From NCBI GenBank assembly GCA_964630365.1, contig CAZVUP010000001.1, positions 3,816 through 67,815 of the forward strand: a stretch of 64,000 nt of DNA, written 5' to 3'. Positions 23,981 through 62,927 of this stretch are shown in pieces. Both the position numbers and the translations under genes were made by a program. This DNA is from an uncultured Muribaculaceae bacterium (GTDB lineage Bacteria; Bacillota_I; Bacilli_A; RF39; UBA660). Below the pieces are notes generated by a model. That model did not search any database, had not been told where the DNA came from, and was given only the letters and a program-made list of their open reading frames with translations. How positions within the stretch are numbered: the stretch's first letter is position 1; each line of letters begins with the position of its first letter.

Positions 23981-24000
23981 CAAAATAGGAGGATGATAAT

Positions 24001-25867: not shown

Positions 25868-25914
25868 AAAAACATCCTCCTCTTTAATAATATCACACTC
25901 CAAAAATAAAAACA

Positions 25915-41623: not shown

Positions 41624-41653
41624 AAGAAAAAAACGTATGAATTTTCATACGTT
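41624..41653 (-). terminator. Terminator after the 560-aa cargo gene
   Basis: Identical ACGTATGA/TCATACGT hairpin and T-run. Confidence 0.7.
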
Positions 41654-43334: not shown

Positions 43335-43440
43335 ATAATATCTCCCGAAACTTTGATAGTAAATAATTTTTACTAATCAAAAATTATAAATGCCAATTAT
43401 TATAATATCATAATAATTATAGCATTAGTTTCACTAACTG

Positions 43441-43470
43441 AAAAGAAAAAATGCATGAATTCCATGCATT
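43441..43470 (-). terminator. Terminator after the cassette-B accessory gene
   Basis: ATGCATG/CATGCAT stem followed by a T-run on the minus strand. Confidence 0.6.
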
Positions 43471-43504
43471 ATTCTAACGTATAAAATATAAAAAAAAGGA
43501 TAAA

Positions 43505-44968: not shown

Positions 44969-44985
44969 CCACAAAAGCCTCCCTT

Positions 44986-46113: not shown

Positions 46114-46153
46114 GCTATCCTCCTAAATAATCTTGTTAAAATACATTATAGTA

Positions 46154-46180
46154 GGCACAACCGACATAGTCGATTGCGCC
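46154..46180 (-). promoter_or_regulatory. GC-rich intercistronic stem-loop between the TasA-like B and peptidase B genes
   Basis: 11-bp stem. It is perfect (with two G-U pairs) only in the minus-strand RNA and has two mismatches on the plus strand. The downstream sequence is only weakly U-rich. Confidence 0.4.
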
Positions 46181-46201
46181 ATCTATAAAAAATTCTAAGT
46201 A

Positions 46202-46855: not shown

Positions 46856-46980
46856 AGATTACACCTCCTTTTCCTTATTTCAAGCATATGATGACATTTC
46901 TTTTATTCTTTTTAGAGAGATAACAATCCCCATATCATGTACTTTCAATACATACCTATTGTCATATGCTATCTATGAAA

Positions 46981-47009
46981 ATTCTAACATCAAAAGCAGT
47001 AAAAATCAA
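46981..47009 (-). promoter_or_regulatory. Candidate sigma-A promoter of cassette B
   Basis: TTGATT, 17 nt, (TGt)TAGAAT on the minus strand. Confidence 0.4.
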
Positions 47010-47034
47010 GTGTATACAAATAATTTTTATATGC

Positions 47035-47066
47035 AAAAAAACTTTACAAATTTTTTGTAAAGTTTT
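47035..47066 (-). terminator. Terminator ending cassette A
   Basis: AACTTTACAAA/TTTGTAAAGTT palindrome immediately after the stop codon, with T-rich flanks. Confidence 0.6.
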
Positions 47067-47067
47067 C

Positions 47068-49416
47068 TTATTCAGATTTTATAAAGTGCATTCCCGTCCA
47101 CACTTGAACTCTATCACCAGGATTATAATAAGTATTTTCAGAAGTACTATACCATCTTCCAGTAATTAATTTAGATAATGTATAATAATCCCCTTCTTTA
47201 ACCAAATAATTACTTTTAATCAACATATTGTCCTGATCAGTAGTAACCATCCAATATCTTTCATTATTTTTCATTATTGGCGGTAACAACATATTATCAG
47301 CTATAATACTATTTTTAATATAATCTTTAAATAACGCTAAATTCGTTCGATTGTCATTAAGAAGAATTGCTAACTCGCCTGCTCTAAATCCTTTATACAT
47401 ATAATATGGTAATACATCTTCTAAGTATTTATAATCAATAGTTTTAACTACTCTATCATTACTCCATGTAATATCATCATTAAACTTATATAAATTCGTA
47501 ATATCCGTATATCTATCTGTCGTTATAAAATCATCAGATACTATATTATAATATCTAGTTGACGCTACAAAATAATATTTTTTATTCTCATTAACCACCT
47601 CAATATTAGTAACACTAACAGTAGTTAACTTATCACCATTTAATTTCTTAACATTAGTACCAATATGAAAATGTTCTCTATCCTTAAAATTAACAAACTT
47701 ATTCTCATCGGCACTAAAGAATGAATGATCATTAAAAATACTAATAGTTGAATTATCACTAAAAGTAATTTTTATATATGAAGGAGTTGTATAAGCTTTT
47801 TCAATCCATAATGGATATTCTGGAACAAGTCTACCTAATTCATAGCTCCATACCATTAATAAATCATCATATTTAATATCTTCTATATTCTTATACTTAC
47901 CATTAGCTAGTAAAACTTTTGTACCTTCAATTAAGCAACTACCACCTTCAGCAGTTATAACAACATCACCAACAACATTTGGAATCGATACTCGACCATT
48001 ATTATATGTATAACTACCAGTACCAAGAGTTTGTCCGCCCATTGTAACAGTAATAGACTCAGGTAAAGTATTATTACCACTAGCTGTCATTGTACCAGTA
48101 TAAGTTTGATTACGATTTACTGTCGAAGTATTAGGACAATTCAAATTAGTACAACTAAAACTAACATTAAAAACCCATTTATAAGCATCCGATGTGCTAC
48201 GTGAAGCGTGCCCACGACCAGTCGTTGCTGAATTAACATAATCGCTACCACTATTACCACTTTCATCTGTACCACTAACAACAAAATAATATGTTCCCTC
48301 ACTAAGACCAGTAACAACTAAACTCTCACTATCATCACTAGTATTCATAGTTTTAACAACACTTCCACTATTATTAAAAACAGTCACCGTATAGAAAGAA
48401 ATATTTGTATCATCCTCACCACTCCAAGTAACAAGAACAGATCCAACATCATCTTGAATAACAGCATTAACATTACTAATGAAAGGTGGTGTTGTATCAA
48501 CATAAACAACTGTCTTATCAACCAATAAAGAAATTCTACCAGCATTTATTGCACTATCACCAGTAGGAGTAACATACACAGTAACACGCTCTTCATCAAC
48601 ATTATATTCATTACCTGCTAACTCTTTTACATAAAAAGTATAATTAGAATCTCCTCCAGCTGTAATAGTCTGTGTTGGATATGGATTTCCATTAGCATCT
48701 ACTATTTGAAAGTGATCACTACTAATTGAAATATCAAAAGTACTATCATAACTATAAGTACTTAAAACCCTAACAGAAAACTCTGCTGTATCAGGATTAC
48801 CCCTTAAATCACCTGTCGTTGGAGCATTCATAGATGCCAAAATATGAGCCGTTGTATCTTCTGCTACTTGTGGCGCAAAATCTCCATTAATAACAAAAGT
48901 ATCAGTATCTTGCTCACTAGATGGATTAGTAAAAGTAAACGATACCGTAAACGTCTTTGACTCCCCTGAAGATATAACATCACCAGCGGCAATACCAGTT
49001 ATTGTATATCCTACATAAGAAGAATCAATAAGTTCTCCATTACTCTGTCTATTAACAGTCATTGGATAACTAAGACTCGTATACACAAAATCATAAAAAC
49101 TATCATTTTGAATAGTAACATCAAACACTGCAACATATGTAGCACTCTGATCAGCAACAGTCGTAAATTTAAGTCCAAAATCAATAGAATTACCATTATT
49201 AATTACAGGATTAGAAATAGCATTAGTGTGCGTTCCTTGAGTAACACTCTTAATATAAATATCTCCCCCAGCTTTAAAGATAGATCCCCCACTTAAATTC
49301 AAAATTTGCCCATAAAGAGCAAATCCCACAGTCATAAAAAGTAATACAAAAACAGCAAAAAAAGAGATTATAACGCTGCTTTTTAATCTTTTCTTCTCAA
49401 CATACCTATTCATCAT
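47068..49416 (-). CDS. Large secreted cargo protein: shared leader/TasA-like module, Fn3-like and Ig-like domains, Hint domain, unknown C-terminal domain
   Basis: Leader ...VGFALYGQILNLSGG. Fn3-like PPFISNV...VTWSG...GTYYFVVSGTDESGN. Hint block A GSCLIEGTKVLLANGKYKNIEDIKYDDLLMV (Cys codon 47935-47937). Block B-like ISIFNDHSFF. ATG 49416/49413 after GAGGA. Confidence 0.65.
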   Translation of the reverse strand: MMNRYVEKKRLKSSVIISFFAVFVLLFMTVGFALYGQILNLSGGSIFKAGGDIYIKSVTQGTHTNAISNPVINNGNSIDFGLKFTTVADQSATYVAVFDVTIQNDSFYDFVYTSLSYPMTVNRQSNGELIDSSYVGYTITGIAAGDVISSGESKTFTVSFTFTNPSSEQDTDTFVINGDFAPQVAEDTTAHILASMNAPTTGDLRGNPDTAEFSVRVLSTYSYDSTFDISISSDHFQIVDANGNPYPTQTITAGGDSNYTFYVKELAGNEYNVDEERVTVYVTPTGDSAINAGRISLLVDKTVVYVDTTPPFISNVNAVIQDDVGSVLVTWSGEDDTNISFYTVTVFNNSGSVVKTMNTSDDSESLVVTGLSEGTYYFVVSGTDESGNSGSDYVNSATTGRGHASRSTSDAYKWVFNVSFSCTNLNCPNTSTVNRNQTYTGTMTASGNNTLPESITVTMGGQTLGTGSYTYNNGRVSIPNVVGDVVITAEGGSCLIEGTKVLLANGKYKNIEDIKYDDLLMVWSYELGRLVPEYPLWIEKAYTTPSYIKITFSDNSTISIFNDHSFFSADENKFVNFKDREHFHIGTNVKKLNGDKLTTVSVTNIEVVNENKKYYFVASTRYYNIVSDDFITTDRYTDITNLYKFNDDITWSNDRVVKTIDYKYLEDVLPYYMYKGFRAGELAILLNDNRTNLALFKDYIKNSIIADNMLLPPIMKNNERYWMVTTDQDNMLIKSNYLVKEGDYYTLSKLITGRWYSTSENTYYNPGDRVQVWTGMHFIKSE

Positions 49417-50434
49417 AATCCTCTTTTTCAATTACATATTCCCAAGCCATATGTTCAAATATAATAACAAATCTTGTTCTATTCTTTTCTTGAACATAAT
49501 TAATTGGCGTTCTAACGTCATTATAAACTACTAACAAATCATCAAAAGAACTAACTTCTACTAAATTAAATTTACTTAGTTTTAATTCTTTTACTTTTAC
49601 CATAATACTACCATAATCATTAGTAATCTTAATAACATTTCCATTATAACTATCTAATTTCTTATTCTTAGCTAACCATACAAAATGCTTAAACACAACA
49701 TAGAATAATCCAAAGATATCTATTAAGAATAATATCTTAAAGATAATATGCTTTAAATCATTAAGTCTTACTTTACGAGTTATTTCTTTTTGTTTATTAT
49801 TTTGATCAGTATTAATAACACCCTCTACTGCTACTTTAGATAAAGGTATTTTTACACTTATTTCAGAATTAACAGGAATAGTATCTTCAGCACTAACTTG
49901 TGGTTTACCATCAACAACAAGTGCAAGTTTCAAGAATCCATCACTACTCAAATTATAAGTATCAACAAATGATAATAATAATTCATTATATTTCTGATAA
50001 TCAATATTAATTGACTCAGATATTTCACAATCTTCTTCACCAAATAAATATTTAGTTCTGATATCAGTTAAATTAAAACTCTTCTCCCAATAAGTACCAA
50101 CTTGATTATTTGTCTTTTCAGCACTAACTGTTGCTACTATATGATATTTTAATTCACCATCAACAGGAGTATTAAATAATACTTTATATTTATAATCAAC
50201 AACTAAATGATCTATCAAACTAGTAATATAGGTTTTATCTTTACCAAGAAAAGGTTGATCAAAGAAATTATTTTCTTTTAGATATACTTTATAATCAATA
50301 CTATTATCTTCATTGTAAGAGTATTTTATATCTTGGCAATCATTGAAACCAATGGAATAAAATACTAAACCAAGAATGACTAGTACTGCAACATATACCC
50401 AAAAATAATCTGTTGACCTTTTCTTTACTAGCAC
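49406..50434 (-). CDS. Bitopic accessory membrane protein A (DUF5305-like)
   Basis: NEDNSIDYKVYLKENNFFDQPFLGKDKTYITSLIDHLVVDYKY. TMs at about residues 10-28 and 229-250. GTG start with AAGGAGTG upstream. Overlaps the next gene by 11 nt. Confidence 0.55.
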   Translation of the reverse strand: MLVKKRSTDYFWVYVAVLVILGLVFYSIGFNDCQDIKYSYNEDNSIDYKVYLKENNFFDQPFLGKDKTYITSLIDHLVVDYKYKVLFNTPVDGELKYHIVATVSAEKTNNQVGTYWEKSFNLTDIRTKYLFGEEDCEISESINIDYQKYNELLLSFVDTYNLSSDGFLKLALVVDGKPQVSAEDTIPVNSEISVKIPLSKVAVEGVINTDQNNKQKEITRKVRLNDLKHIIFKILFLIDIFGLFYVVFKHFVWLAKNKKLDSYNGNVIKITNDYGSIMVKVKELKLSKFNLVEVSSFDDLLVVYNDVRTPINYVQEKNRTRFVIIFEHMAWEYVIEKEDYDE

Positions 50435-50439
50435 CTATA

Positions 50440-51594
50440 TCACTCCTTTCTTAAAAATTCATTAAACCAAACCGTTGGCCACCCTATATATTTACAAACA
50501 TAGATAACTTTACCAATAATATCTTCTTCTTCAATTAAATAACCATCTTCATTGTTATTGGCATCTCCTTTAGTATAGAAGAAAACTTGTTCCTCATATT
50601 CAACCTTTTTAACAACCCTATGAGCAATAATTTTACCACTCTTTTGATAGATTAATATTTCCCCAACTTCAGTATCTTTAGGATTTTTCTTATCAACCAA
50701 TACTGCATCTCCCTTATAGTAAACAGGTATCATTGAGTTTGATGCTATCGCAATCAATTGATATCTAAGTATTCCAGAAACTAGTATTGTTAAAATAATT
50801 AAAGCTACAACTAAAGGTCTAGTCATAAACCCAACACTAAATTTATTCTCTTTTCCTCTTCTTCTATCTAATCTATTTATTTTAACGATATATTTTCTAT
50901 CTGCTAAATAAATAACAAAAGGTATTAATATATGCATAGTCCCATATAAATACTCATTTAAATTAGCGAAGAATGGAAATATATATATATAACATTTAGC
51001 CAATACCTTGAATACTAAACTAGGTAATAGACCAAAATTATATGTCATATAACTACATAATAATTCCTGTGCAATTATAGGAAAAATAGTTATAGAAATA
51101 AAAATGAACCATTTAAGTTTATTATCAAGAAATCCTATATTCATCTCTAATAATATATTCAATATAATTAACAAAATAGTTAATATAACAATTTCACTTT
51201 TATTTATATAAGTACTTTTAATAAGAGTATATCTAAAAACCTCTTCAACCACTAAAAATATAAGTACAGGAATAAATCCATTTAATACTTTATCAACATC
51301 AAGTGAAAATGCTGTTTTAGAAAATCCAATTAAAATTCCAAGCAAAAAACAAATAAAGAAAAATCCTACAAAAACAGAAATTTCTATTTTTATAGCTGTC
51401 TCTCTATCAAAAGAATTATCCTTCTTATAACCTAAGAAGTAAATTGCCGGAATAAGTAAAATTACTAAAAAGCATACAATTACAAAGCTTCTACCAAGAG
51501 GATTATTATAGTTAGACATTAAAAGGAAATATAATACTTCAAATATTAATAAAGCTATCTCAAATATATAAATCCTTTTAAGTCTAACCTTCAT
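50440..51594 (-). CDS. Polytopic membrane domain fused to a SipW-type signal peptidase, copy A
   Basis: About 260 aa with about 7 TMs, then IASNSMIP, IAHRVV, TKGDANNNEDG, YIGWPTVWFNE. Confidence 0.7.
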   Translation of the reverse strand: MKVRLKRIYIFEIALLIFEVLYFLLMSNYNNPLGRSFVIVCFLVILLIPAIYFLGYKKDNSFDRETAIKIEISVFVGFFFICFLLGILIGFSKTAFSLDVDKVLNGFIPVLIFLVVEEVFRYTLIKSTYINKSEIVILTILLIILNILLEMNIGFLDNKLKWFIFISITIFPIIAQELLCSYMTYNFGLLPSLVFKVLAKCYIYIFPFFANLNEYLYGTMHILIPFVIYLADRKYIVKINRLDRRRGKENKFSVGFMTRPLVVALIILTILVSGILRYQLIAIASNSMIPVYYKGDAVLVDKKNPKDTEVGEILIYQKSGKIIAHRVVKKVEYEEQVFFYTKGDANNNEDGYLIEEEDIIGKVIYVCKYIGWPTVWFNEFLRKE

Positions 51595-51618
51595 AATCAC
51601 ACCATCTTTATATTAAAA

Positions 51619-52197
51619 TTAAGCTACATCTTCATAAAGAAAAGATCCATTAATTGTAATTGTTTTATCTTCTGTTGGTAAATCTGCTTGTGGAATATCT
51701 TCTTTATTTTTATAAGTAATAGTTAATGTTACATCTTTTGTAGCACCATTTTCATTAATTACATTAGATAAACCTGTTGCATTAGTAGTATAATCTGCTC
51801 CATCATAAGTAAGTTTACACTCAGCAAATTTTTGTTGATCAGCTGTTAAACCACTAAAATTAATAGTAGTAAGTTTTGCTTTAATAGTACCATCATTAAC
51901 AACTTTCCACTTTGCAACATAAGTATCACCTGGTTTATTCAAAGTTACATTGAAAGTAAAATCAGTATTTGTTAAACTACTTGATTGAGCAACATCAGCT
52001 GTACCACTTTCTTGTAAAGTTCCTGATTTATAATGAACATTCCAAGCATTTTTGAAAACAGCTTTACTTGAAGTACCACTAGCTCCACCACCGATATTTA
52101 ATGTTGTAGAATATAATGCGAAACCTACAGCCATGAATAATAGTACTGCTACCAATAAAATAATAGTCTTTCTTTCACTCTTTTTACTTTTTCTCAT
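51619..52197 (-). CDS. TasA/camelysin-like secreted protein A (candidate major subunit)
   Basis: Start MRKSKKSERK (ATG 52197, AGGAGG 7 nt upstream). Leader ...VGFALYSTTLNIGGG. FTFNVTLNKPGDTYVAKWKVVNDGT resembles TasA NLSNLKPGDKLTKDFQFENNGS. Confidence 0.6.
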   Translation of the reverse strand: MRKSKKSERKTIILLVAVLLFMAVGFALYSTTLNIGGGASGTSSKAVFKNAWNVHYKSGTLQESGTADVAQSSSLTNTDFTFNVTLNKPGDTYVAKWKVVNDGTIKAKLTTINFSGLTADQQKFAECKLTYDGADYTTNATGLSNVINENGATKDVTLTITYKNKEDIPQADLPTEDKTITINGSFLYEDVA

Positions 52198-52245
52198 CTT
52201 CATACCTCCTCTATTATATAAATTTAACATTTTTCGACATATTTC

Positions 52246-52274
52246 ACAATATTTTTATTAAAAATTTGTTGCAA
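52246..52274 (-). promoter_or_regulatory. Candidate promoter of cassette A
   Basis: TTGCAA, 17 nt, TATTGT on the minus strand. The -35 box overlaps the preceding terminator T-run. Confidence 0.3.
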
Positions 52275-52324
52275 AAAAAAATATTTGTGATATAAGGCAT
52301 TCCCTATTAAAAAACCACAAATAT
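52272..52324 (-). terminator. Terminator ending the seven-paralog array
   Basis: 9-bp outer stem ATATTTGTG/CACAAATAT plus an inner ATAGGG/CCTTAT helix, followed by T9 on the minus strand. Confidence 0.5.
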
Positions 52325-53149
52325 TTATTTTTTGTTGTATATATATACTTTATCAACTTCAACCATTTCATCTTGACCGGTGTATTCTTCAAATTTTATG
52401 TCTTTCTTATGCGGAGGTGCATAAACAGCTACTTGCCCATGCTCAGTTAAATGAGGTTGTACCTTATCATCTAAAAAACTAGTTAATGTAGTAAATTGCT
52501 CATTACTAAAATAGTCTGTTATATTCGACATAAAAACAGCATCATATTTTTCATCAGAACTAAGTTTAGAAATAAAGTCATGAAATGTAGCATGATGTAA
52601 TCTAACATCTACCCTTTCCAAGTTATCCCTTGTAACATAATAGTTTTCATCAAAAGCAAAACATCTAAGTCTACTATCAATAAAGAATTGTAAGAAGATA
52701 AATCTAGATTTATTATTTTTTAAATTTCCGCTTTGATATAATGTATCCCAAAATATTAGTGAATCTAAGTCCAACTCTTCTCTAATTTTTAAATATATAT
52801 TCAAATCAAATATCTCAGAAGGATCTCTAAAACCAAAAAAGTATGCAAATTCATCTTGACTTAAAGTTTTTAAAGCCGCTAATTTTAACTTTATCAAATA
52901 TATCTGAAATCTATTTTTATCAAAAGCATCTACTTCTTTTGCTCCACTATAAACAGCTTGTAAGATATGATCTCCACTGCCAGCAACAGTTAATACTTTC
53001 GCACCATCTAACTTAAACTTATCATAATAAATTGATAAAGCTTCATTTGTTCGAATATAAATTTTTCCATAATTTTTTGGATATTTCTGAAAATAAACAT
53101 CATTTAACATATTTATAGCAACTTCAATATCTCGTGGTAATTCCTTCAT
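52325..53149 (-). CDS. DUF3419/BtaA-like SAM-fold protein, array member 7
   Basis: IYIRTNEALSIYY, KVLTVAGSGDHILQAVYSGAKEVDAFDKNRF, KLKLAALK, FWDTLY, YDAVFMSNITDY, VAVYAPP. Confidence 0.6.
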   Translation of the reverse strand: MKELPRDIEVAINMLNDVYFQKYPKNYGKIYIRTNEALSIYYDKFKLDGAKVLTVAGSGDHILQAVYSGAKEVDAFDKNRFQIYLIKLKLAALKTLSQDEFAYFFGFRDPSEIFDLNIYLKIREELDLDSLIFWDTLYQSGNLKNNKSRFIFLQFFIDSRLRCFAFDENYYVTRDNLERVDVRLHHATFHDFISKLSSDEKYDAVFMSNITDYFSNEQFTTLTSFLDDKVQPHLTEHGQVAVYAPPHKKDIKFEEYTGQDEMVEVDKVYIYNKK

Positions 53150-53162
53150 AAGGCACCCCCAT

Positions 53163-53975
53163 TTATAATTTACTTTTTATATAAACTTTTTGCTTATCTA
53201 AATAAGTATCTTCAGTATAGTCTTCGTATTGTACTACATCACTCAGAGTCGGTACATATACTGCCATTTTGCCACCTGTTTCTAAGTTTTTACTTAAAAC
53301 ATGCAATACATAATCCTTAAATTCATTCTTTTCTACAAAAGTTAACCAATCATAAATATTAGATAGAAATATTGCTTTATAAGAATCTGTAAGCACTCCA
53401 CCTAAATCAAATAAATCACTCAAATAATAGCCAATAGATACATCATCTATTTTTTCCCTAATAGAATAATAATTTGCACTATCCCTGTAACTATCTATCC
53501 CCAAATCATGACGTTGTGGTCCAAAAACAATTCTATGAATATTTTTTATATTACCATCTTGATATAAACTATCCCAAAACAACTGAGCATCATCAGCTAA
53601 ATAATCAGAAAACTTCTCATAAATTCTTAGGCTCATAAAATCAAAAGCTCCATTATTTAATGAAAAAAAGTTTTCAAAATCTTCATGACTTAATGTTTTT
53701 ATAGCAGCAACCTTTAATTTAACAACATATAAAGCAAATCTATTATGATCAAACACATCTACTTTTTTTGCTCCTTCATGTACTGCTTGCAAAAGATGAT
53801 CTCCACTTGCCGCAACTGTTAAAACTTTTTCACCAGAAATTGAAAATTTTTTATAATAAGTTGATATTTGCTCATTTGTATTTAAAAAAGCTTTTGAATA
53901 AGTAGACGGAAAAATATAATTTATATCATTTAAAGTTCTAAGCGCAACTGCAATATCTTTTTTTACTTGATTCAC
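53163..53975 (-). CDS. DUF3419/BtaA-like SAM-fold protein, array member 6
   Basis: Same motif set (FLNTNE, VLTVAASGDHLLQAV, VDVFDHNRF, KLKVAAIK, FWDSLY, AIFLSNIYDW, MAVYVP). GTG start with GAAGGGGT SD. Confidence 0.6.
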   Translation of the reverse strand: MNQVKKDIAVALRTLNDINYIFPSTYSKAFLNTNEQISTYYKKFSISGEKVLTVAASGDHLLQAVHEGAKKVDVFDHNRFALYVVKLKVAAIKTLSHEDFENFFSLNNGAFDFMSLRIYEKFSDYLADDAQLFWDSLYQDGNIKNIHRIVFGPQRHDLGIDSYRDSANYYSIREKIDDVSIGYYLSDLFDLGGVLTDSYKAIFLSNIYDWLTFVEKNEFKDYVLHVLSKNLETGGKMAVYVPTLSDVVQYEDYTEDTYLDKQKVYIKSKL

Positions 53976-53977
53976 TT

Positions 53978-54802
53978 TTAACCCCTTCTCTCATAAACAT
54001 ATACTTTTCTATCTAACTCTTGTTGACCAATATATTTTTCATAATTAAATCCCTCATTATGATGCGGAACATATACTGCTACTCTAGCTTCTGGATTTAA
54101 ATGGCTATTTAAATCCTTCATAATAAATCTAGGATAATTTTTTTTACCCCATCCCATTAAATAATCATAAATATTAGATAAAAATACGGCACCATATTTT
54201 AGATCACTTTGAATACTATCTAAAACACCATAAATATCACTATGACAATAAGTGATTTCTACATTTTCTAAAAGTGTTTTTGTCATCCAGAAATTATCTT
54301 TCTCATCATATCTTTCAGCTGTTCTATCAAATCTAGAACTTAAAAAAGTCATATACCCATGCCAACTAATAAACCCAGCCTTATACATTGCATCCCAAAA
54401 CATAGCTGTTTCTTCATCTAAATAATCACGTATTTTTTTATAAAGATTAAAACTAAAATTCTCCCTAAATTTAGCATAATTATAAAAATTAAGAAATTCT
54501 TTTTGACTTAAAGCTTTAACAGCAGCAATCTTTAATTTAGCTGCATATATAGCAAACTTATTTTTATCAAATGAATCAATTCTCTTCGCCCCATAATAAA
54601 CAGCTTGTAATATTTGATCTCCTCCAGAAGAAACCGTTAAAACATTTCCTCCATCTATTGGAAAAAATCTATAATATTCAGATAAATTTTCATTAGTATT
54701 AACATAAATTGTTCCATACCCATCAGGAAAAGTATATGGACAAGGTGAATGTAAACAATCAACACCAATTTTTATATCTTTTTCTACTTCTTGTAAACTC
54801 AC
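53978..54802 (-). CDS. DUF3419/BtaA-like SAM-fold protein, array member 5
   Basis: Same motif set (YVNTNE, VLTVSSGGDQILQAV, IDSFDKNKF, KLKIAAVK, FWDAMY, AVFLSNIYDY, VAVYVP). GTG start with AAGAGGGTG SD. Confidence 0.6.
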   Translation of the reverse strand: MSLQEVEKDIKIGVDCLHSPCPYTFPDGYGTIYVNTNENLSEYYRFFPIDGGNVLTVSSGGDQILQAVYYGAKRIDSFDKNKFAIYAAKLKIAAVKALSQKEFLNFYNYAKFRENFSFNLYKKIRDYLDEETAMFWDAMYKAGFISWHGYMTFLSSRFDRTAERYDEKDNFWMTKTLLENVEITYCHSDIYGVLDSIQSDLKYGAVFLSNIYDYLMGWGKKNYPRFIMKDLNSHLNPEARVAVYVPHHNEGFNYEKYIGQQELDRKVYVYERRG

Positions 54803-54804
54803 AA

Positions 54805-55659
54805 TTACACCCTCTTAAATTCTTTTTCTAACTTTTCTCCTCTTTTTAAAGTATAAACAACTCCCTCTTCTCCATGAGAATCATTAATTGAACAAATCTC
54901 TGGATCAGGATTATCAAATGGTGCATATACAGCCATTACCCCATCATCAGTAAGATATTCAGAAAGTTCTACAATTAAATCAGAAAACTTTTCTCTTTCA
55001 TCTAAAATTAACCAATCATAAATATTTGATAAAAATATGGCATCATATTTTCTATTCTTATCCAAACAAGCCACTAATTCATATAAACTTAAATTAAAAA
55101 AATTAATTTCAGAATTATTTAATCTTTTCTTTGTCTTAGTATAAAAATAAGGACTAGAAAATCTTCTAAAACCATAATCTAAACATTTTGTAAATAAAGT
55201 ATATGACCAAGCTACAAGATTATTTCTATTATCTGAAAGCTGACCTTCAAAATACATCGCATCCCAGAAAGCTTTAACATCATTATCTAAATAGATTCTA
55301 ATTCGCATATAAGTATTAGTATTCAAAAAACCTTTTAAACTATAATAATAATTTATAAATTCTTCTCTTTCTAGTACTTTCAAAGCAGTTATTTTAAGTT
55401 TTGCAGCATATATAGCTATCTTATTTTTATCAAAGGCATCTACTTCTCTAGCACCATTACAAACAGCTTGTAATATATGATCTCCTCCTGAAGAGACAGT
55501 AAGAACTCTTCCACCTTTACATGGAAAAGCTCTATAGTACTTTGATAAACCTTCATTAGTATTAAAATAAACACTACCGTATCTATCATCCATTTTAAAC
55601 TTATGTGTCTTATCTAGAATAGAAAGTCCCTCTTTTATGTCCTCTTCTATATTTGACAT
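54805..55659 (-). CDS. DUF3419/BtaA-like SAM-fold protein, array member 4
   Basis: Same motif set (YFNTNE, VLTVSSGGDHILQAVCNGAREVDAFDKNK, KLKITALK, FWDAMY, AIFLSNIYDW, MAVYAP). Its ATG abuts the stop of the upstream small gene. Confidence 0.6.
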   Translation of the reverse strand: MSNIEEDIKEGLSILDKTHKFKMDDRYGSVYFNTNEGLSKYYRAFPCKGGRVLTVSSGGDHILQAVCNGAREVDAFDKNKIAIYAAKLKITALKVLEREEFINYYYSLKGFLNTNTYMRIRIYLDNDVKAFWDAMYFEGQLSDNRNNLVAWSYTLFTKCLDYGFRRFSSPYFYTKTKKRLNNSEINFFNLSLYELVACLDKNRKYDAIFLSNIYDWLILDEREKFSDLIVELSEYLTDDGVMAVYAPFDNPDPEICSINDSHGEEGVVYTLKRGEKLEKEFKRV

Positions 55660-56022
55660 TTATTTTACCTTCTCTTCAGAAAGTCCTTCTAAATGCAATA
55701 AAACATCTTCTAAATGCTTGGTCTCATATGCTAAAGAACGTCCATATTCATTTAATGCTACATATTGACGAACTAATGAATTATCTTGTATTAATTTTTT
55801 TGCTTCTTCTGCTATTTCAACAAAACTAGAAAAAGTATCATCCTCCGTATTTAAAACCATATCAATGCTCAATCCATTATAAATAAGATAAGTACTTATC
55901 TCTACATATCTTTTTAATGAACTATCATCTAGTTTTCTAAGATTTTCTAAATCACCAATTACACTAGACAATAAAGCATTTTTTTCTCTATAAACTCTTT
56001 TTACATTTTTATAATTATCCAT
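55660..56022 (-). CDS. Small helical cytoplasmic protein embedded in the paralog array
   Basis: 120 aa with no TM or signal peptide and helix-favouring composition. AGAGGGGA RBS. Its stop TAA is directly followed by the ATG of member 4. Confidence 0.45.
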   Translation of the reverse strand: MDNYKNVKRVYREKNALLSSVIGDLENLRKLDDSSLKRYVEISTYLIYNGLSIDMVLNTEDDTFSSFVEIAEEAKKLIQDNSLVRQYVALNEYGRSLAYETKHLEDVLLHLEGLSEEKVK

Positions 56023-56114
56023 TAAACATATCCCCTCTACTAGGTAATTAATAAAAAATAGAAATAGAATAAACTATATATAAAATATAACTACCCCTCT
56101 TTTTATTGCTAGCT

Positions 56115-56143
56115 ATAATATCATATTTTCTTAAAAAAGTAAA
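56115..56143 (-). promoter_or_regulatory. Candidate internal promoter in the only sizeable gap of the array
   Basis: TTTACT, 17 nt, (TGa)TATTAT on the minus strand within the 143-nt gap. Confidence 0.3.
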
Positions 56144-56165
56144 GAAAAACAGAAACTAATCTAAA

Positions 56166-56978
56166 TTAATTTCTGCCATTTTTATGATAGACATAAACTT
56201 TTTCATCATCTTTTTTTATAGACCCCTTATATTCTTCAATATATGCTACTTCTTCATATGGAGAAGCATATACTGCAATCATTCCTTCATCAGTTAACAC
56301 TTTAGACAAAATATTTTCCAAAAAGGAATTAAATTCCAACATTTCATCACCACGTAACCAATTATAAATATTTGATAAAAATACCGCATCATACCTACTA
56401 TCAGGAGGTGTTTTATCTAAAACAGTATGTAATGTACTTAGATAATAATTAATCTTTACCCTCTCAAGATTATTTTTAGTCTTTTCATAATTTTCATCAA
56501 ATGCATAATATCCTTTAGAATTTTCTACTAAAAAGCCTCTATCAACTAAATAATCTATATACTCTTCACAATTCTTACTAGAATATAAAGCATCAAAAAA
56601 GATTCTTACATCTAAATCTAAATATTTTCGAACTTTTCTATAATAACTCATATTCTCAAAATCTTTATAATACTCACTAAATTCCCACTGATCTAATGCT
56701 TTAACAGCAGCAACTTTAAGCTTAGCAAAATATAAAGCAATCTTATTTTTATCAAAAGCATCTATTTCTCTCGCACCATTACAAACAGCTTGTAATATAT
56801 GATCACCTGATGCAGCTACAGTCAATACCCTACCACCTTCTATTGGAAAAACTTTATAGTATTGTCCTAAAGGCTCATTGGTATTCAAAAATGCTGTGGT
56901 ATACTCTTCAGGTACAGGAATACCATTCAAATATGCATACGTCAATAAAACATCTTTATAAGCTCCTGCTATTTTCAT
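56166..56978 (-). CDS. DUF3419/BtaA-like SAM-fold protein, array member 3
   Basis: Start MKIAGAYKD (ATG 56978, GAGGTGA upstream), overlapping member 2 by 23 nt. FLNTNE, VLTVAASGDHILQAVCNGAREIDAFDKNK, KLKVAAVK, AVFLSNIYNW, IAVYASP. Confidence 0.6.
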   Translation of the reverse strand: MKIAGAYKDVLLTYAYLNGIPVPEEYTTAFLNTNEPLGQYYKVFPIEGGRVLTVAASGDHILQAVCNGAREIDAFDKNKIALYFAKLKVAAVKALDQWEFSEYYKDFENMSYYRKVRKYLDLDVRIFFDALYSSKNCEEYIDYLVDRGFLVENSKGYYAFDENYEKTKNNLERVKINYYLSTLHTVLDKTPPDSRYDAVFLSNIYNWLRGDEMLEFNSFLENILSKVLTDEGMIAVYASPYEEVAYIEEYKGSIKKDDEKVYVYHKNGRN

Positions 56979-57795
56979 TATTATCACCTCTTCGATACAC
57001 ATAAATTTTTCCCCTATCAAAATGCTTTTGATTTTTATAATTAGCAAAAGTTAAATTCGCCTCAGCAACAGGAGCATAAGCAACAATAACCCCATCATCT
57101 GTTAGATGCTTACTACACTCTTCACTTATAAATCTATAAAATCTTTTTCTTTTAAGAAAAGATAAATGATCATATATATTTGATAAAAATATCGCATCAT
57201 ATAATTCGTCATCAGAAAGATTATCAACAAATGCATGCAAATCAGAATGATCATAACTAATTAAAGCTGAATCTAACTTAGATCTAGTATCATCATATCT
57301 ATCAGGACTACAATATGAGTCTAGACCATCATCACTAAATCTATAATAATTAATTATATTATCATAAAACTTATCAAGCCAACCTCTAACATACATTGTA
57401 TCCCAAAAAACTAAGACATCATCATCTAAATAATCTCTAATTTTACTATATATTTGTTTATTTAAAAATTTCTCATCATTCCAATCAAAAAAACTAATAA
57501 AATCTTCTCTTGAAAGCGCTTTAATAGCGGTTATTTTTAATTTGGCAAAATATAATTGAAATTTATTCTTATCAAATGTATCAATTCTTTTAGCACCATT
57601 AGAAACAGCTTGCAATATATGATCACCACTAGATGTCACAGTAAGAACTTTCCTACCCTCTAAAGGAATATATTTATAGTATCCTGAAACAAATTCATTT
57701 GTAGAAATATATATATAGTTATAATCACTAGGAAAATGCTCATTCCCATGCAAGATAGCTACTCCAACACTTATATCATAGTCTAAACTACTCAT
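56956..57795 (-). CDS. DUF3419/BtaA-like SAM-fold protein, array member 2
   Basis: YISTNE, VLTVTSSGDHILQAVSNGAKRIDTFDKNKF, KLKITAIK, FWDTMY, AIFLSNIYDH, IVAYAP. Confidence 0.6.
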   Translation of the reverse strand: MSSLDYDISVGVAILHGNEHFPSDYNYIYISTNEFVSGYYKYIPLEGRKVLTVTSSGDHILQAVSNGAKRIDTFDKNKFQLYFAKLKITAIKALSREDFISFFDWNDEKFLNKQIYSKIRDYLDDDVLVFWDTMYVRGWLDKFYDNIINYYRFSDDGLDSYCSPDRYDDTRSKLDSALISYDHSDLHAFVDNLSDDELYDAIFLSNIYDHLSFLKRKRFYRFISEECSKHLTDDGVIVAYAPVAEANLTFANYKNQKHFDRGKIYVYRRGDNNENSRSL

Positions 57796-57815
57796 AATAC
57801 CACACCAATCTAAAT

Positions 57816-58625
57816 TTATTTATCTTTTTTATACACATATACTTTTTGATAAGAATCTATTATTCCTTCATAAGGTACTATTTCAGGATTAGTTACATAA
57901 GGAGGTGCATATACCGCAATAGCCCCCTCAGAAGATAATCTCTCAGCTAGATTTTTATTAATACATCTATTAAATTCCCTCTTAGCATCTAAACTTAAAT
58001 AATTAAAAATATTTGATAAGAATACACAACTATAATCAGCACTAGTATTTTTTTGTAAAAAATGATTAAGTGATGCATGATAAAAATTCATATCTACAGA
58101 TTCTAACCTTTTTCTAGTTAAATAATAGTTATCTGGAATAGAATAAGCAAAATCAGTAACATCAAATTGAAATTCCGAAAAAAATAATTGTTTCGCAACA
58201 GAACGAAAACTAACTAATTTTTCATAAAGTGCATCCCAAAATAGTTTTGTCTCATCATCTAAATACAAACGAATTTTATGATATAAATCAGTATCAAAAA
58301 AAGTAATTTCATCATAAAAAAAACTTTGAAATTCATAACAAGACAAAACTTTAATTGCCGCTATTTTTAATTTTGAAACATATAGTGCAAATTTATTTCT
58401 ATCAAAAGCATCTATTTTACTAGCCCCTTTACAAACAGCTTGTAATATTTGATCTCCTCCGGAAGAAACAGTTAAAACTTTATTTCCCGCTATAGGAAAT
58501 TCATTATAATATAAAGATAGTTCTTCATTAGTATTTACAAAAACATGTCCATAACTTCTTGGAATAGGCCTAATATCTGTTAAAACTCCTAAAGCAACCA
58601 TAATATCTTTTTCTACTCGACTCAC
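57816..58625 (-). CDS. DUF3419/BtaA-like SAM-fold protein, array member 1
   Basis: GTG start with GAGGTG 5-6 nt upstream. FVNTNE, VLTVSSGGDQILQAVCKGASKIDAFDRNKF, KLKIAAIK, FWDALY, CVFLSNIFNY, IAVYAPP. Confidence 0.6.
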   Translation of the reverse strand: MSRVEKDIMVALGVLTDIRPIPRSYGHVFVNTNEELSLYYNEFPIAGNKVLTVSSGGDQILQAVCKGASKIDAFDRNKFALYVSKLKIAAIKVLSCYEFQSFFYDEITFFDTDLYHKIRLYLDDETKLFWDALYEKLVSFRSVAKQLFFSEFQFDVTDFAYSIPDNYYLTRKRLESVDMNFYHASLNHFLQKNTSADYSCVFLSNIFNYLSLDAKREFNRCINKNLAERLSSEGAIAVYAPPYVTNPEIVPYEGIIDSYQKVYVYKKDK

Positions 58626-58682
58626 ATTAACACCTCTAGTTGAAAACGATTTATAGCTATAATAACATTTTTATTAAAATAA

Positions 58683-58716
58683 GCCAATAGAAACTAGCAA
58701 AAGTTAGTCTATTGGC
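58683..58716 (-). terminator. Terminator overlapping the stop of the S11 carboxypeptidase gene
   Basis: GCCAATAGA/TCTATTGGC stem (extendable) followed by U-rich sequence. It separates that gene from the paralog array. Confidence 0.55.
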
Positions 58717-59848
58717 CATTTAAAAGTGACTTTAAAGATTGTTTGTATAAATCTATTATTCCTGCTTTTGAAACAGATTTATCTACTGTTAGAGGAACAC
58801 TTTTAACCTTTTTACCATCAGAATATATAATAATTTTACCAACTACATCTCCTACTTTTATTGGCGCACTTATTTCTTTTCTTACATCAATATCATAAGT
58901 ATATTTATTACTTTTATCACCATCATCTAAAACATTTACATCTTCAATCAGTTTTAATTTGACCATATCTTCCTTACCACTAATTACTTTAATTTTACCA
59001 ATATCAGAATTTTTCTTTAATATATTCTTAATTTTATAGTTTTGAAACCCATAATCAAGTAAAGACATCGCTTCACTATTCCTAATTTTACTACTTTCTT
59101 CTTTCATAAGAATACCAATTAAACGAAGTCCATTTCTTTTGGCCGTAACTGCCATACAATAACCCGCATCATCAGTATGACCTGTTTTTAATCCATCAAC
59201 TCCATCATATAAATTAATAAGCTTATTAGTATTAACTAACCAAAATTTTCGATCAGTATCTTTTCGTAAATAATCTTCATGAATAGAAGAAAATCTCAAA
59301 ATATCTGGATGATTAATAATTAATTCTCTAGCAATCATAGCCATATCATAACTTGTAGAAAAATGACCATCTTCATCAAGCCCTGTACAATTCTTAAAAT
59401 GTGTATTTTTAAGACCCAACTCTTTTACTTTATCATTCATTCTTTTAACAAACTTTTTCTCATTACCACTAATATATTCAGCCATAGCTACAGTTGCATC
59501 ATTACCACTAGCAACAGAAATACCTTTCATCAAATCTTCAACACTCATCTCTTCACCAGTTTCCAAATAAATTTGCGATCCACCCATATCACTAGCATTC
59601 TTACTAACAGTAACCATATCAGTCCACTTAATATTACCTGATTCAATTTCTTCTAAAATTATTATTTGTGCCACCATCTTAGTCATAGAAGCAACACTTA
59701 CTTTTAAATTTTTCTCTTTTTCAAACAATACTTTTCCACTATCAGCATCAATTAAAATTCCACTCCCAGCCTTATTAAGCAACTCTTCTTCTGCAAAAAC
59801 ACTAATAGGAAAAAGAAATAAACTAAGTATTAACAATATTTTTTTCAT
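58709..59848 (-). CDS. D-alanyl-D-alanine carboxypeptidase (S11, PBP5-like)
   Basis: Signal peptide. SMTKM (SxxK), SGND (SxN), KTGHT (KTG). C-terminal beta domain. Confidence 0.85.
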   Translation of the reverse strand: MKKILLILSLFLFPISVFAEEELLNKAGSGILIDADSGKVLFEKEKNLKVSVASMTKMVAQIIILEEIESGNIKWTDMVTVSKNASDMGGSQIYLETGEEMSVEDLMKGISVASGNDATVAMAEYISGNEKKFVKRMNDKVKELGLKNTHFKNCTGLDEDGHFSTSYDMAMIARELIINHPDILRFSSIHEDYLRKDTDRKFWLVNTNKLINLYDGVDGLKTGHTDDAGYCMAVTAKRNGLRLIGILMKEESSKIRNSEAMSLLDYGFQNYKIKNILKKNSDIGKIKVISGKEDMVKLKLIEDVNVLDDGDKSNKYTYDIDVRKEISAPIKVGDVVGKIIIYSDGKKVKSVPLTVDKSVSKAGIIDLYKQSLKSLLNGQ

Positions 59849-59939: not shown

Positions 59940-60836
59940 ATGAGTAAGAAAAAAAAGAAAAAAATAAAACTCAAAAAGAAAAACATTATTATTTTTCTAA
60001 TATGCCTATTTTTAATTATCTTTATCCCCATAAAGACAATAAATTTAATATCTAAATCAATTTCAAACCATAAAGTAAAGCTTAAAGAACAAGAACAAGC
60101 AAAGAAAAAACACAATAATGGAATAAATAAAAATATTAGTTATTATAATAAAAACTATTTATCACGTTATTTGAAATATAAAAAAGAAAATAAAAACTTA
60201 TCAGATGAACAAATAATAAAAAATGTAAACATGAATTTAGACTTAAAACAATATGAGGATACAATAAAAGCTAAAAACTTAAACACGGAAAAAGTATTAG
60301 TAAATAAATATTACTATTTAGAAGAAGATTATGTTCCAGATAACTTAGAAGAAATTAATAAACAATACGCCTTAAATGGCATGAAATTAGTAGATGTCGC
60401 TAAAGAAGCTTTTGAGGATATGGCTAAAGATGCTAAAAAGGAAGATTTAACAATAGTAGCTATGTCTTCATACCGTAGTTATGATTATCAAGTTGATCTA
60501 TATAATCGTTATGCTAAAAAAGATGGTACAGAAGCAGCAGATACGTATTCTGGTAGACCAGGACATTCTGAACATCAAACCGGCTTAGCAGTCGATGTAT
60601 ATAACGAAGAAAAAGATTATACTAATTTTGAAAAAACAGATGAATATGAATGGATGATAAAACATGCTCATGAATATGGTTTTATACTGAGATTTCCTAA
60701 AGATAAAGAAAAAGAAACTGGCTATCACTTTGAATCTTGGCATTATCGTTATGTCGGTCAAGAAATAGCAAAATATATAAAAGAACATAATATTTCATTT
60801 GAAGAATATTATGCCACTAAAATAAAAGATTGGTAA
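59940..60836 (+). CDS. M15B (VanY-like) D,D-carboxypeptidase, membrane anchored
   Basis: N-terminal TM. SSYRSYDYQ, RPGHSEHQTGLAVD, ESWHYRYVG metal/catalytic motifs. Confidence 0.8.
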   Translation: MSKKKKKKIKLKKKNIIIFLICLFLIIFIPIKTINLISKSISNHKVKLKEQEQAKKKHNNGINKNISYYNKNYLSRYLKYKKENKNLSDEQIIKNVNMNLDLKQYEDTIKAKNLNTEKVLVNKYYYLEEDYVPDNLEEINKQYALNGMKLVDVAKEAFEDMAKDAKKEDLTIVAMSSYRSYDYQVDLYNRYAKKDGTEAADTYSGRPGHSEHQTGLAVDVYNEEKDYTNFEKTDEYEWMIKHAHEYGFILRFPKDKEKETGYHFESWHYRYVGQEIAKYIKEHNISFEEYYATKIKDW

Positions 60837-60878: not shown

Positions 60879-61646
60879 ATGGAAAAAGAAAAGAAAAATG
60901 GTGGTAAATTCTTACTTGGAATCGTCTTAGGTTTATTAGTAGGTGCTTGCTGTAGTTTTGGATATTTTAAATTTGTAAATCCCCAAATAGTTGAAACTAC
61001 TAAAACAAGTAGCGATAAAGAAGAAAAAAAGGAAAATGCTACTAAAGAATGTCCAAAAGTCTATGATTCATATGATGAAGTAGCCATATCAAACATTGAA
61101 AAGTTTATGCATGCTGATGGATACTTTTGTGGAACACAAGATAGTTTCTTTAAAGATACAAAAGTAACTGCTGCTGATATTTCAAATTCACAAGCTTATT
61201 TAACTGTAGCTCAAAAATACTATGAAAATAAAGAAACAATCTCAAAAGAACAAATAGAATCTGATATAGCTGCATTATTTGGCAAAGATTACAAATATGC
61301 AGGTAGTGATGATTTTGGACCTGGAAAAATATGTACATCCCACTATTATGATAGTGCAACTGGTAACTATCCATATCAAGAAACTGCTTGTGGTGGTACA
61401 TGTGGACCAAGTAATCCAAAATACTACATTTCAAAAGCAGTACTTGATGACGGAATTTTGACAATAAATTTAAAAGTCTTATTCCAAGATGGTGATGAAG
61501 GTGTTTATTTTTCAGATCCAGCAAAAACACAAAAAATAAACGAATATTCTGAAATGAAAATAATTCAAAAAGGAAAATCATATCGTTTTACATTAAAAGA
61601 AGAAAATGGAAATTATGTGTTCGTATCAAGTGAACCTATAAACTAA
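60879..61646 (+). CDS. Hypothetical membrane-anchored protein
   Basis: AGGAG RBS, one N-terminal TM, Cys-containing ectodomain, no recognised motif. Confidence 0.45.
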   Translation: MEKEKKNGGKFLLGIVLGLLVGACCSFGYFKFVNPQIVETTKTSSDKEEKKENATKECPKVYDSYDEVAISNIEKFMHADGYFCGTQDSFFKDTKVTAADISNSQAYLTVAQKYYENKETISKEQIESDIAALFGKDYKYAGSDDFGPGKICTSHYYDSATGNYPYQETACGGTCGPSNPKYYISKAVLDDGILTINLKVLFQDGDEGVYFSDPAKTQKINEYSEMKIIQKGKSYRFTLKEENGNYVFVSSEPIN

Positions 61647-62255: not shown

Positions 62256-62927
62256 CTAGCCAACAAGTTCAGAAATATATACAGTCTGTGTATAATCATT
62301 ATTCTTTGTACATGTAATCATTGTTAATGTAGTTCTATCATAATTCCTTACAATTCTAACAATTCCAGTTTTTGGTACTTCATAAATATTAACTATTTGA
62401 TATTGGTATCTAACTCCACCATAAGTTACATATGCATAATCACCAACATTTAAGCGATAAAGATACGCAAAATATGATATATAAGCATCTCCAGAATGTG
62501 CCATTAAAATTAAATTTCCATTAACAACATCCGGAAGGCTTGATCCACCTACCATAGTAACATTATATTGAATATTATTATATTTCGAACCGACGTTATA
62601 AAATCCCCTTTTTAACCCTATTTTTGGTATTTCCAAGACTCCTAAGTATTTACTATAATCTATTGGTCTTGGAGCTGCTTGTGGTTCTTCAGGACTAACC
62701 TCCACATTATTAGCTATGGGTGTATCAGAAACCAAGCCAGTATCTTCTGTATCATCTGTAACATCCATCATAGCAATTCGCATATCAGAATAGATTTCAT
62801 CTTTTGTTTTGATTAAATAGTTCCATGACAAAAATACAATTCCCAAAAATATAAGTAAAGAGCCAAGCATTAATGTATGGCTCTTTTTAATCTTACTGCT
62901 TAATTTCAACAGGTTTTGCATTAGCAT
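62256..62927 (-). CDS. Sortase-family transpeptidase
   Basis: N-terminal TM. LILMAHSG (His) and TLTMITCT (TLxTC Cys). No Arg in the 17 residues after the Cys. The start is uncertain because the ORF overlaps the upstream gene. Confidence 0.7.
   Translation of the reverse strand: MLMQNLLKLSSKIKKSHTLMLGSLLIFLGIVFLSWNYLIKTKDEIYSDMRIAMMDVTDDTEDTGLVSDTPIANNVEVSPEEPQAAPRPIDYSKYLGVLEIPKIGLKRGFYNVGSKYNNIQYNVTMVGGSSLPDVVNGNLILMAHSGDAYISYFAYLYRLNVGDYAYVTYGGVRYQYQIVNIYEVPKTGIVRIVRNYDRTTLTMITCTKNNDYTQTVYISELVG

Follow-up and report, generated by a model that had tools for sequence, protein, structure and literature searches.

BtaA, an S-adenosylmethionine (SAM):diacylglycerol 3-amino-3-carboxypropyl transferase that gives 5'-methylthioadenosine as a product, is the founding characterised member of the DUF3419 family (PF11899) and has a BtaB-type N-methyltransferase as its partner, either in a btaAB gene pair or within the fused protein BTA1. 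In the literature that we searched, BtaA is the only characterised DUF3419 protein, and papers on the family either treat BtaA and betaine lipids or mention the family in passing. Here we analyze seven paralogous genes for short DUF3419 proteins, denoted W1 to W7, that form an array in a 64-kb stretch of DNA deposited as an uncultured Muribaculaceae bacterium (GTDB lineage Bacillota_I; Bacilli_A; RF39; UBA660; contig CAZVUP010000001.1, positions 3,816 to 67,815). This whole stretch is hereafter called the window; coordinates are positions within it, and the copies are numbered along the direction of transcription. A preliminary description of the locus, made from the sequence alone, knew of no function for such an array, and our literature search likewise found no paper on one.

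The array occupies positions 52325-58625 of the minus strand and, according to the list of open reading frames (ORFs), consists of seven paralogs of 269 to 284 amino acids (aa) each. Orthologs in two related loci, L001 and L010, were named A1-A4 and B1-B5, respectively. The array genes are the following:

57816-58625, minus strand: W1, 269 aa, GTG start, PF11899 score 59.5 bits; ortholog B1 65% identical
56956-57795, minus strand: W2, 279 aa, PF11899 score 60.4 bits; orthologs A1 (73% identical) and B3 (54%)
56166-56978, minus strand: W3, 270 aa, PF11899 score 45.7 bits; overlaps W2 by 23 nucleotides (nt)
55660-56022, minus strand: small ORF S, 120 aa, all-helical and acidic (isoelectric point, pI, 4.9); its stop codon abuts the W4 start
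54805-55659, minus strand: W4, 284 aa, PF11899 score 49.2 bits; ortholog A2 75% identical
53978-54802, minus strand: W5, 274 aa, GTG start, PF11899 score 59.5 bits; ortholog B4 59% identical
53163-53975, minus strand: W6, 270 aa, GTG start, PF11899 score 51.0 bits; ortholog A3 63% identical
52325-53149, minus strand: W7, 274 aa, PF11899 score 72.9 bits; orthologs A4 (58% identical) and B5 (62%); the copy used for modelling

The preliminary description had presented the seven paralogs as consecutive. The seven copies are real and of the reported lengths, but they do not follow one another without interruption: a 143-nt spacer and the unrelated ORF S are interposed between W3 and W4. The remaining spacings are 20, -23, 2, 2 and 13 nt, and a purine-rich Shine-Dalgarno site precedes every copy, so that the reported small gaps, 23-nt overlap, strong Shine-Dalgarno sites and three GTG starts were all recovered. 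W3 is counted here from an ATG preceded by the Shine-Dalgarno sequence GAGGTG, although its reading frame is open back to 57047. The copies are 38-44% identical to each other in a full-length alignment with 46 invariant columns, which reproduce the motif series noted earlier and include NTNE, VLTV..GD..LQAV..GA, D.FD.N, KLK..A.K.L, F.D..Y and F.SNI. All seven proteins are acidic (pI 5.0-6.1, net charge -3 to -10) and hydrophilic, and no membrane segment was predicted in any copy, consistent with a cytoplasmic location.

All copies score above the PF11899 gathering cut-off of 28.2 bits (45.7-72.9 bits), as do matches from distant relatives, with 68 of 68 diverse family members hitting the model (best E among them, 1.1e-21). 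The match of W1-W7 spans only approximately positions 9-130 of the 385 in the profile (E 1e-12 to 1e-20), with at most a short second stretch; neither these proteins nor the distant short-form homologs align with the model over its full length. By comparison, BtaA from R. sphaeroides matches the same model with P = 2e-106 (PMC6642084). Judged by the PF11899 E-values (1e-12 to 4e-20), strong full-length similarity to BtaA was not found in the short proteins. Because their match is weak and limited to the N-terminal third of a model on which BtaA reaches 2e-106, W1-W7 are true but distant, truncated relatives of BtaA and not its orthologs. The earlier assignment to a DUF3419/BtaA-like family is thus retained as far as the family is concerned, but BtaA itself is only a remote relative.

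The window proteins share with BtaA the Pfam family, by its curated threshold, the N-terminal SAM-binding half and solubility, both being devoid of membrane segments. They also keep what we take to be the DUF3419 consensus, namely, the N-terminal motif series, the LK..A helix and the FWD motif. They differ from BtaA in length (about 270 aa, as against the 385-position model), in their distribution in Firmicutes, where they sometimes form multi-copy arrays, and in their surroundings: no btaB-like gene, BtaB-type N-methyltransferase or other methyltransferase domain was detected among the array neighbours scanned. A profile of the seven copies searched against 1.84 billion representatives clustered at 50% identity matched 3,418 clusters at E<=1e-3, of which 2,121 remain at E<=1e-10 and 269 remain under a threshold of E<=1e-30. 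With few exceptions the best 150 matches are 270-360 aa long, and the named relatives, which come from metagenome-assembled genomes (MAGs) of Bacilli and Clostridia, carry only the label "DUF3419 family protein." No NCBIfam model matches any copy or S. These searches place W1-W7, as far as sequence similarity can tell, in a large short branch of DUF3419 (approximately 270-350 aa) that has no name. The family label is known; the literature searched contains no description of the short branch, its size, its lack of a characterised member or structure, or its repeated growth into arrays.

W7 was modelled with AlphaFold2 on the basis of 15 sequences (predicted local distance difference test score, pLDDT, 89.1; predicted template modelling score, 0.89). 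The model contains a strand (residues 51-55, VLTV) followed by the SGD loop, a helix (60-67) and a second strand (72-77) that ends in FD. A helical insert (approximately residues 80-177) comes after strand 2 and leads to two further strands, 181-186 and 202-206, of which the second ends in SN, and to a C-terminal sheet. The model accordingly displays the alternating beta/alpha core, the glycine-rich motif I after strand 1 and the acidic end of strand 2 that define the class I fold. In each copy, motif I reads VLTV-x-S-[SG]-G-D, strand 2 is followed by an acidic D-x-F-D-x-N and a helical insert of some 85 residues, and strand 4 by L-S-N-I. Foldseek comparison of the model with the PDB retrieved class I SAM methyltransferases and related SAM enzymes (AviRa, PKMT1, XrdM, UbiG, TehB, CypM and others), and every functionally annotated hit at E<0.01 belongs to the SAM-dependent methyltransferases or to SAM-dependent enzymes close to them. 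The top hit was an uncharacterised Leptospira protein (6ulo), and the second and third hits were the rRNA methyltransferase AviRa. W7 shares the Rossmann-type SAM-binding core with such generic class I methyltransferases (AviRa 1o9g, PKMT1 5do0, XrdM 8rdl and UbiG 4kdr), but the template modelling (TM) scores are low, 0.31-0.48, and the sequence identities are 9-16%. Searching PDB sequences with one protein, or with a profile of 68 sequences, yielded no true relative, only chance hits (E > 0.008). Given these low TM scores and the lack of a PDB sequence relative, no solved structure represents the family or its helical insert. Among viral structures, only generic methyltransferases were matched, the best match being an uncharacterised giant-virus protein. 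Together, the model and its annotated structural neighbours support a class I (Rossmann-type) SAM-dependent transferase fold for W1-W7, as the preliminary description had anticipated.

Five residues, E34, D58, D75, S204 and N205 (W1 numbering), which fall in the NTNE, SGD, FD and SN motifs, are invariant across the 68 diverse homologs. Among W1-W7, mean pairwise identity declines from 0.71 in the SAM core (strand 1, helix and strand 2) through 0.62 in the KLK..A.K helix, 0.54 in the NTNE..YY segment and 0.40 in the strand 3-strand 4 region (motif IV) to 0.30 in the helical insert and 0.25-0.28 in the N- and C-termini. Three insert residues, F129, D131 and Y134 (F-W-D..Y), remain invariant in the seven copies despite the divergence of the rest of the insert. 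This distribution suggests a common catalytic constellation surrounded by a variable periphery, which fits one chemistry acting on different acceptors and also fits variable oligomer interfaces. The contrast between the core (0.71) and the insert and termini (0.25-0.30) is compatible with the earlier proposal of a battery diversified in its substrates. The reading that we favour, and to which we give about an even chance, is that W1-W7 are a battery of active SAM-dependent transferases with one chemistry and differing acceptor recognition. All copies would act on the same kind of reactive group, each recognising a different acceptor or a different position or variant of one acceptor class. Methyl transfer, the default for the fold, would be the likeliest reaction, the other candidate being 3-amino-3-carboxypropyl transfer as in BtaA, which the sequence does not separate from it. 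The acidity of all seven copies would make a small molecule, lipid or peptide a likelier acceptor than a nucleic acid.

The history of the array can be followed in close relatives. In two independent assemblies from goat or ruminant gut samples, L008 and L009, the array is 99.97% and 100% nucleotide-identical to that in the window. In a Bacilli MAG from goat jejunum (L001, L002 and L005), four copies and S are found with PBP5 upstream and TasA-like and SipW genes downstream, and the L010 relative has five copies and S. Pairing of orthologs by identities and a neighbour-joining tree showed that L001 retains W2, W4, W6 and W7, and L010 retains W1, W2, W5 and W7 along with B2, which lies between the first two and has no clear ortholog in the window; no ortholog of W3 was found in L001 or L010. 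Orthologs are 54-75% identical, compared with 33-44% between paralogs within one genome. Gene order is collinear across the window, L001 and L010, with different copies missing in each, and the small intergenic gaps leave no space for pseudogene remnants. Because orthologs exceed paralogs in similarity and the order is collinear, at least six of the seven copies are older than the split of the three lineages, different copies having been deleted cleanly in each relative thereafter. The ratio of nonsynonymous to synonymous substitution rates (dN/dS) for orthologs is 0.18-0.40, and the PBP5 gene at the flank has 0.17; with synonymous sites near saturation, these are upper-range estimates. The surviving copies are, by this measure, evidently under purifying selection. 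The view that the copies are old, intact duplicates is therefore borne out.

Folding of the flanking and intergenic segments and a promoter scan yielded the following elements:

58672-58722, minus strand: upstream boundary hairpin with a U-run, which ends the dacA/PBP5 gene (-15.7 kcal/mol, z-score -4.8, 0 of 200 shuffles as stable)
58656-58687, minus strand: predicted promoter P1, -35 TTGGCT, 17-nt spacer, extended -10 TGTTATTAT(AGC)
56139-56177, minus strand: internal terminator-like hairpin, followed by UUUUUCUUU (-11.3 kcal/mol, z-score -3.8)
56112-56143, minus strand: predicted promoter P2, -35 TTTACT, 17-nt spacer, extended -10 TGATATTAT(AGC)
52270-52326, minus strand: downstream boundary hairpin with a nine-U run (folded over 52265-52330; -15.1 kcal/mol, z-score -3.6, 0 of 200 shuffles as stable)

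All three hairpins were found by direct folding; a simple terminator scanner called none. The two bracketing terminators reported earlier fold well and are followed by U-runs. The internal hairpin has a 13-bp stem that contains the W3 stop codon, and hairpins with different stem sequences occupy the same position in L001 (-6.4 kcal/mol) and L010 (-11.5 kcal/mol, z-score -3.7). P2 lies directly downstream of it, inside the W3-S spacer, and its block is near-invariant across the three relatives, in which the encoded proteins are merely 54-75% identical. The P1 block, ATGTTATTATAGC, is likewise conserved in L001 and L010. In the window, the extended -10 motif TGnTATTATAGC is present only at P1 and P2, two occurrences where 0.17 would be expected. 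No riboswitch or other RNA family was detected by Rfam in the whole window. Since the internal hairpin and a second promoter-like site sit between W3 and S, the locus looks like two co-oriented units, P1-W1-W2-W3-T and P2-S-W4-W5-W6-W7-T, rather than the single, separately terminated operon described previously. The two units would be co-regulated via the common promoter motif.

The small ORF S that opens the second of these predicted units is kept at the same array position in L001 (76% identical) and L010 (35% identical), and a word-indexed search of 5.8 billion proteins recovered only four clusters. Its AlphaFold2 model is entirely helical (pLDDT 92.6). Foldseek gave no structural match below E = 0.1, merely generic helical hairpins, and no family match was obtained in Pfam, NCBIfam, PHROG or PADLOC. 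In the favoured reading, S would serve as a clade-specific accessory; a role as scaffold or regulator is our guess.

A genome-contig scan, seeded by the seven-paralog alignment, gave 3 loci only, the derived peptide patterns being too clade-specific; a metagenome scan, based on a 12-sequence alignment, added 80 loci. ORFs were called in all loci and compared with a family hidden Markov model (HMM) built from the 68-sequence alignment. Of the 42 non-redundant loci that reach 6 kb, a single copy is present in 31 and 2-8 copies in the others. Representative loci are these:

L011: three copies between RNase J and rplU-prp-rpmA, with RNase III also near
L013: one plus six copies near a TrmA-like methyltransferase gene, whiA, radC and efp
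L014: two copies downstream of mnmA
L015, L016 and L017: single copies among metG/alr, DNA polymerase genes, and pnp/suf genes (rpsO/pnp in L017)
L039, L041 and L018: further arrays of four, five and at least three copies, respectively

Within-locus identities in the last three arrays range from 37% to 69%, which implies expansions of different ages, and several other gut Firmicute lineages have built arrays of their own, with 2-7 copies, although most loci are single-copy and lie among housekeeping genes. In L013, one copy, D5 (12102-13073), has degenerate motifs (NKSGDE and LSD, compared with VGSSGDQ and LSN) and gives only a faint match to Pfam; this copy may be a pseudoenzyme, inactive but kept within the array. 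Each neighbour family is found in at most 5 of the 42 non-redundant loci. A link to ABC exporters was considered and rejected, the genes in question being generic half-transporters at varying distances and on varying strands.

A 5.5-kb metagenome contig from ENA encodes a natural fusion of two complete family domains (P0030, 611 aa), each with its own SSGDQ and LSNI motifs, an architecture which suggests that adjacent paralogs can act as a physical pair. In a distant metagenome sub-branch (L022, L024, L052, L054 and L082), a single family domain (HMM E < 1e-10) is encoded in a fixed operon. Its partners, as judged by inspection of their N-termini, resemble a B12-binding radical SAM protein (about 460 aa), a CoaE-type kinase, an ATP-grasp protein and a further methyltransferase. 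In L022 (9125-10921) and L054 (8981-10804), a radical-SAM-like domain (CxxxCxxC) precedes the family domain within one fusion protein (598 and 607 aa). The operon looks like a biosynthetic pathway and could offer a route to the chemistry of the family. The sub-branch shares the family domain, as identified by the family HMM, with the window array but differs from it in being single-copy and in having operon partners, none of which accompany the array.

An eighth member, overlooked in the preliminary description, is encoded elsewhere in the window:

22514-23302, minus strand: W8, a distant family member, 262 aa (family HMM E = 8.8e-35, 116 bits)

W8 lies outside the array, between cotE (23366-24013) and rpsP/khpA. 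It is 25-32% identical to the other members, scores 17.2 bits against PF11899, under the cut-off, and retains the motifs VLTVCGSGDQ, IFDIN and ASNILEY. Its position suggests that it may be the counterpart of the single-copy form in housekeeping context that is common elsewhere. Close to W8, the gene order is miaB, a 113-aa ORF, a 415-aa ORF, a plus-strand gene and cotE. The 113-aa ORF occupies the position held by ymcA in B. subtilis, and the plus-strand gene has a borderline hit to a zinc-phospholipase-C domain. The 415-aa ORF stands out in an otherwise conserved region:

24668-25915, minus strand: 415-aa ORF without a Pfam hit

The array itself is flanked by PBP5/DacA and VanY genes on one side and by genes for a TasA-like protein, SipW fusions and DUF5305 on the other, an order shared by L001 and L008 and, in part, by L010. 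Because distant loci lack such neighbours, this neighbourhood represents the synteny of one small clade. The window also contains cdsA and uppS, genes of ordinary glycerolipid metabolism. Further features around the array are listed below:

41652-52230, minus strand: two paralogous secretion cassettes directly downstream of the array
51619-52230 and 46202-46855, minus strand: TasA-like small secreted proteins of the cassettes
50440-51600 and 44986-46113, minus strand: SipW-type signal peptidases fused to a multi-pass membrane N-terminus (31% identical, E = 2e-49)
49406-50434 and 43505-44974, minus strand: DUF5305-like proteins
39860-41539 and 41652-43334: a 559/560-aa pair, 59% identical, among the large proteins near the cassettes
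59940-60836, plus strand: vanY
60879-61646, plus strand: 255-aa secreted protein
62256-62927, minus strand: sortase-like protein, overlapping the upstream surface-protein ORF 62893-63600, which has a C-terminal membrane anchor

vanY and the gene for the 255-aa secreted protein are the only plus-strand genes in this region and coincide with the single positive GC-skew bin. The syntenic counterpart of the sortase-like protein in L008 has a Pfam Sortase hit, and the arrangement is repeated in syntenic relatives.

Several observations weigh against reading W1-W7 as a battery of transferases with different acceptors. Across the 42 non-redundant loci, no conserved neighbour gene indicates a pathway, and the structural matches are weak, with TM scores that do not exceed 0.48. 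The divergence of the insert and termini could reflect oligomer interfaces instead of acceptor recognition, and the P0030 fusion points to physical coupling of copies. The loss of different copies in relatives implies that single copies are dispensable, which also fits redundancy, and the acidic pI is just a weak argument against RNA substrates. Part of this evidence would suit an alternative that we regard as unlikely: the paralogs would be subunits of one machine, or its consecutive steps, would form hetero-oligomers, perhaps on S, and would act together on a single substrate, which might be alkylated iteratively or at several sites. Besides the two complete domains joined in P0030, the tight gene packing (a 23-nt overlap, one stop codon abutting the next start and gaps of 2-20 nt), the conserved place of S within the array and the inclusion of both termini, frequent interface sites, among the most divergent regions are in line with such a machine. 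The different copy subsets kept by L001 and L010 are, however, hard to square with a fixed complex; moreover, 31 of the 42 loci have only one copy, and S, with its four clusters, is absent outside a small clade. The scenario suggested by the characterised relative, namely, that each copy is a BtaA-like 3-amino-3-carboxypropyl transferase that puts a homoserine-type head, similar to a betaine-lipid precursor, on diacylglycerol or another lipid, one lipid per copy, seems to us rather improbable. It draws on the status of BtaA as the sole characterised DUF3419 protein in the literature searched, on the PF11899 scores above threshold, on the N-terminal motif series, which we presume to be that of the Pfam consensus, and on the glycerolipid genes cdsA and uppS in the window. 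The weak and partial profile match (about positions 9-130 of 385, as opposed to 2e-106 for BtaA), the shortness of the proteins relative to the model and the lack of a BtaB-like N-methyltransferase among the neighbours scanned all argue against it, and the sequence holds nothing that separates aminocarboxypropyl from methyl transfer. We know of no report of betaine or homoserine lipids in Firmicutes, which also speaks against this scenario.

Methylation of RNA, or of ribosomal or translation factors, at a different site by each copy is distinctly unlikely in our estimate. Translation genes do occur near family members, including rpsP next to W8, RNase III, RNase J and rplU-rpmA in L011, rpsO/pnp in L017, the TrmA-like gene and efp in L013 and mnmA in L014, but each of these neighbour families is found in at most 5 of the 42 loci, and housekeeping genes are simply common. 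Similarly, AviRa accounts for Foldseek hits two and three, and W3 has a weak match to the RsmD family (PF03602, 21.9 bits, under the cut-off), but the likeness is confined to the generic SAM core (TM <=0.39), and the pI and net charge of W1-W7 are unusual for RNA-binding enzymes. The location of the array between dacA/vanY and the two TasA-like/SipW-fusion/DUF5305 cassettes, in an order kept in L001, L008 and partly L010, would accord with modification of the adjacent secreted TasA-like, SipW-dependent fibre proteins or of other envelope components. We nevertheless consider such a function very improbable: distant arrays (L011, L013 and L014) and single copies have no such neighbours, terminators and separate promoters set the array apart from both flanks, and the enzymes are hydrophilic proteins without predicted transmembrane segments, as expected of the cytoplasm. 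The hint in the preliminary description at a link to envelope or TasA-like proteins is thus not supported, no gene partner being conserved and the TasA-like linkage being confined to close relatives. Hardly credible is a non-enzymatic array of immunity or decoy proteins, or a component of a defence island, with a mere SAM-like fold. Diverged tandem paralogs with differential loss do resemble immunity-gene arrays, and W4 has a weak PADLOC hit (mad2, E = 5e-4). The defence and phage models were otherwise essentially negative, with no PADLOC hit for the other six copies, no PHROG hits and no plasmid hits by tblastn; no toxin gene is adjacent to the array, whose neighbours are housekeeping and secretion genes; single-copy members sit in core-genome contexts; and neither in W1-W7 nor across the 68 distant homologs do the SAM-binding and putative catalytic motifs vary. 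A battery of transferases that share one chemistry is the reading that we retain.

A broader and bolder interpretation, which we put forward as a long shot, is that the short DUF3419 proteins are a large enzyme family of gut and rumen Firmicutes that alkylates an acceptor class not known to be modified in Gram-positive anaerobes. The reaction would possibly be a BtaA-like aminocarboxypropyl transfer to acceptors such as the head groups of membrane lipids or glycolipids, and the repeatedly evolved arrays of 3-7 genes would be specificity batteries that diversify the modification. DUF3419 has one characterised activity, that of BtaA, and the short branch, which is much larger, occurs widely among uncultured Firmicutes of the gut and rumen. 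One strain offers seven natural variants, and with their orthologs and clean natural deletions these make a ready comparative set for substrate finding, which could settle the choice between methyl and aminocarboxypropyl transfer for the short branch. Should a lipid or some other component of the cell prove to be the acceptor, the array would belong to a new modification system of Gram-positive gut anaerobes; if the reaction is ordinary small-molecule methylation, the outcome would be a useful family annotation and little beyond.

The best-known battery of SAM enzymes is that of the mycobacterial mycolic-acid methyltransferases and cyclopropane synthases, whose paralogs act within one class of lipid, each at its own position or on its own variant. 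The cluster of these genes, mmaA1-mmaA4 and paralogs, is an analogy that differs from the array described here in belonging to the CMAS family, which has no known sequence relationship to DUF3419, in coming from another phylum and in having known substrates. The likeness is one of organisation only: in both cases, diverged class I SAM paralogs are arranged in tandem and keep the cofactor site.

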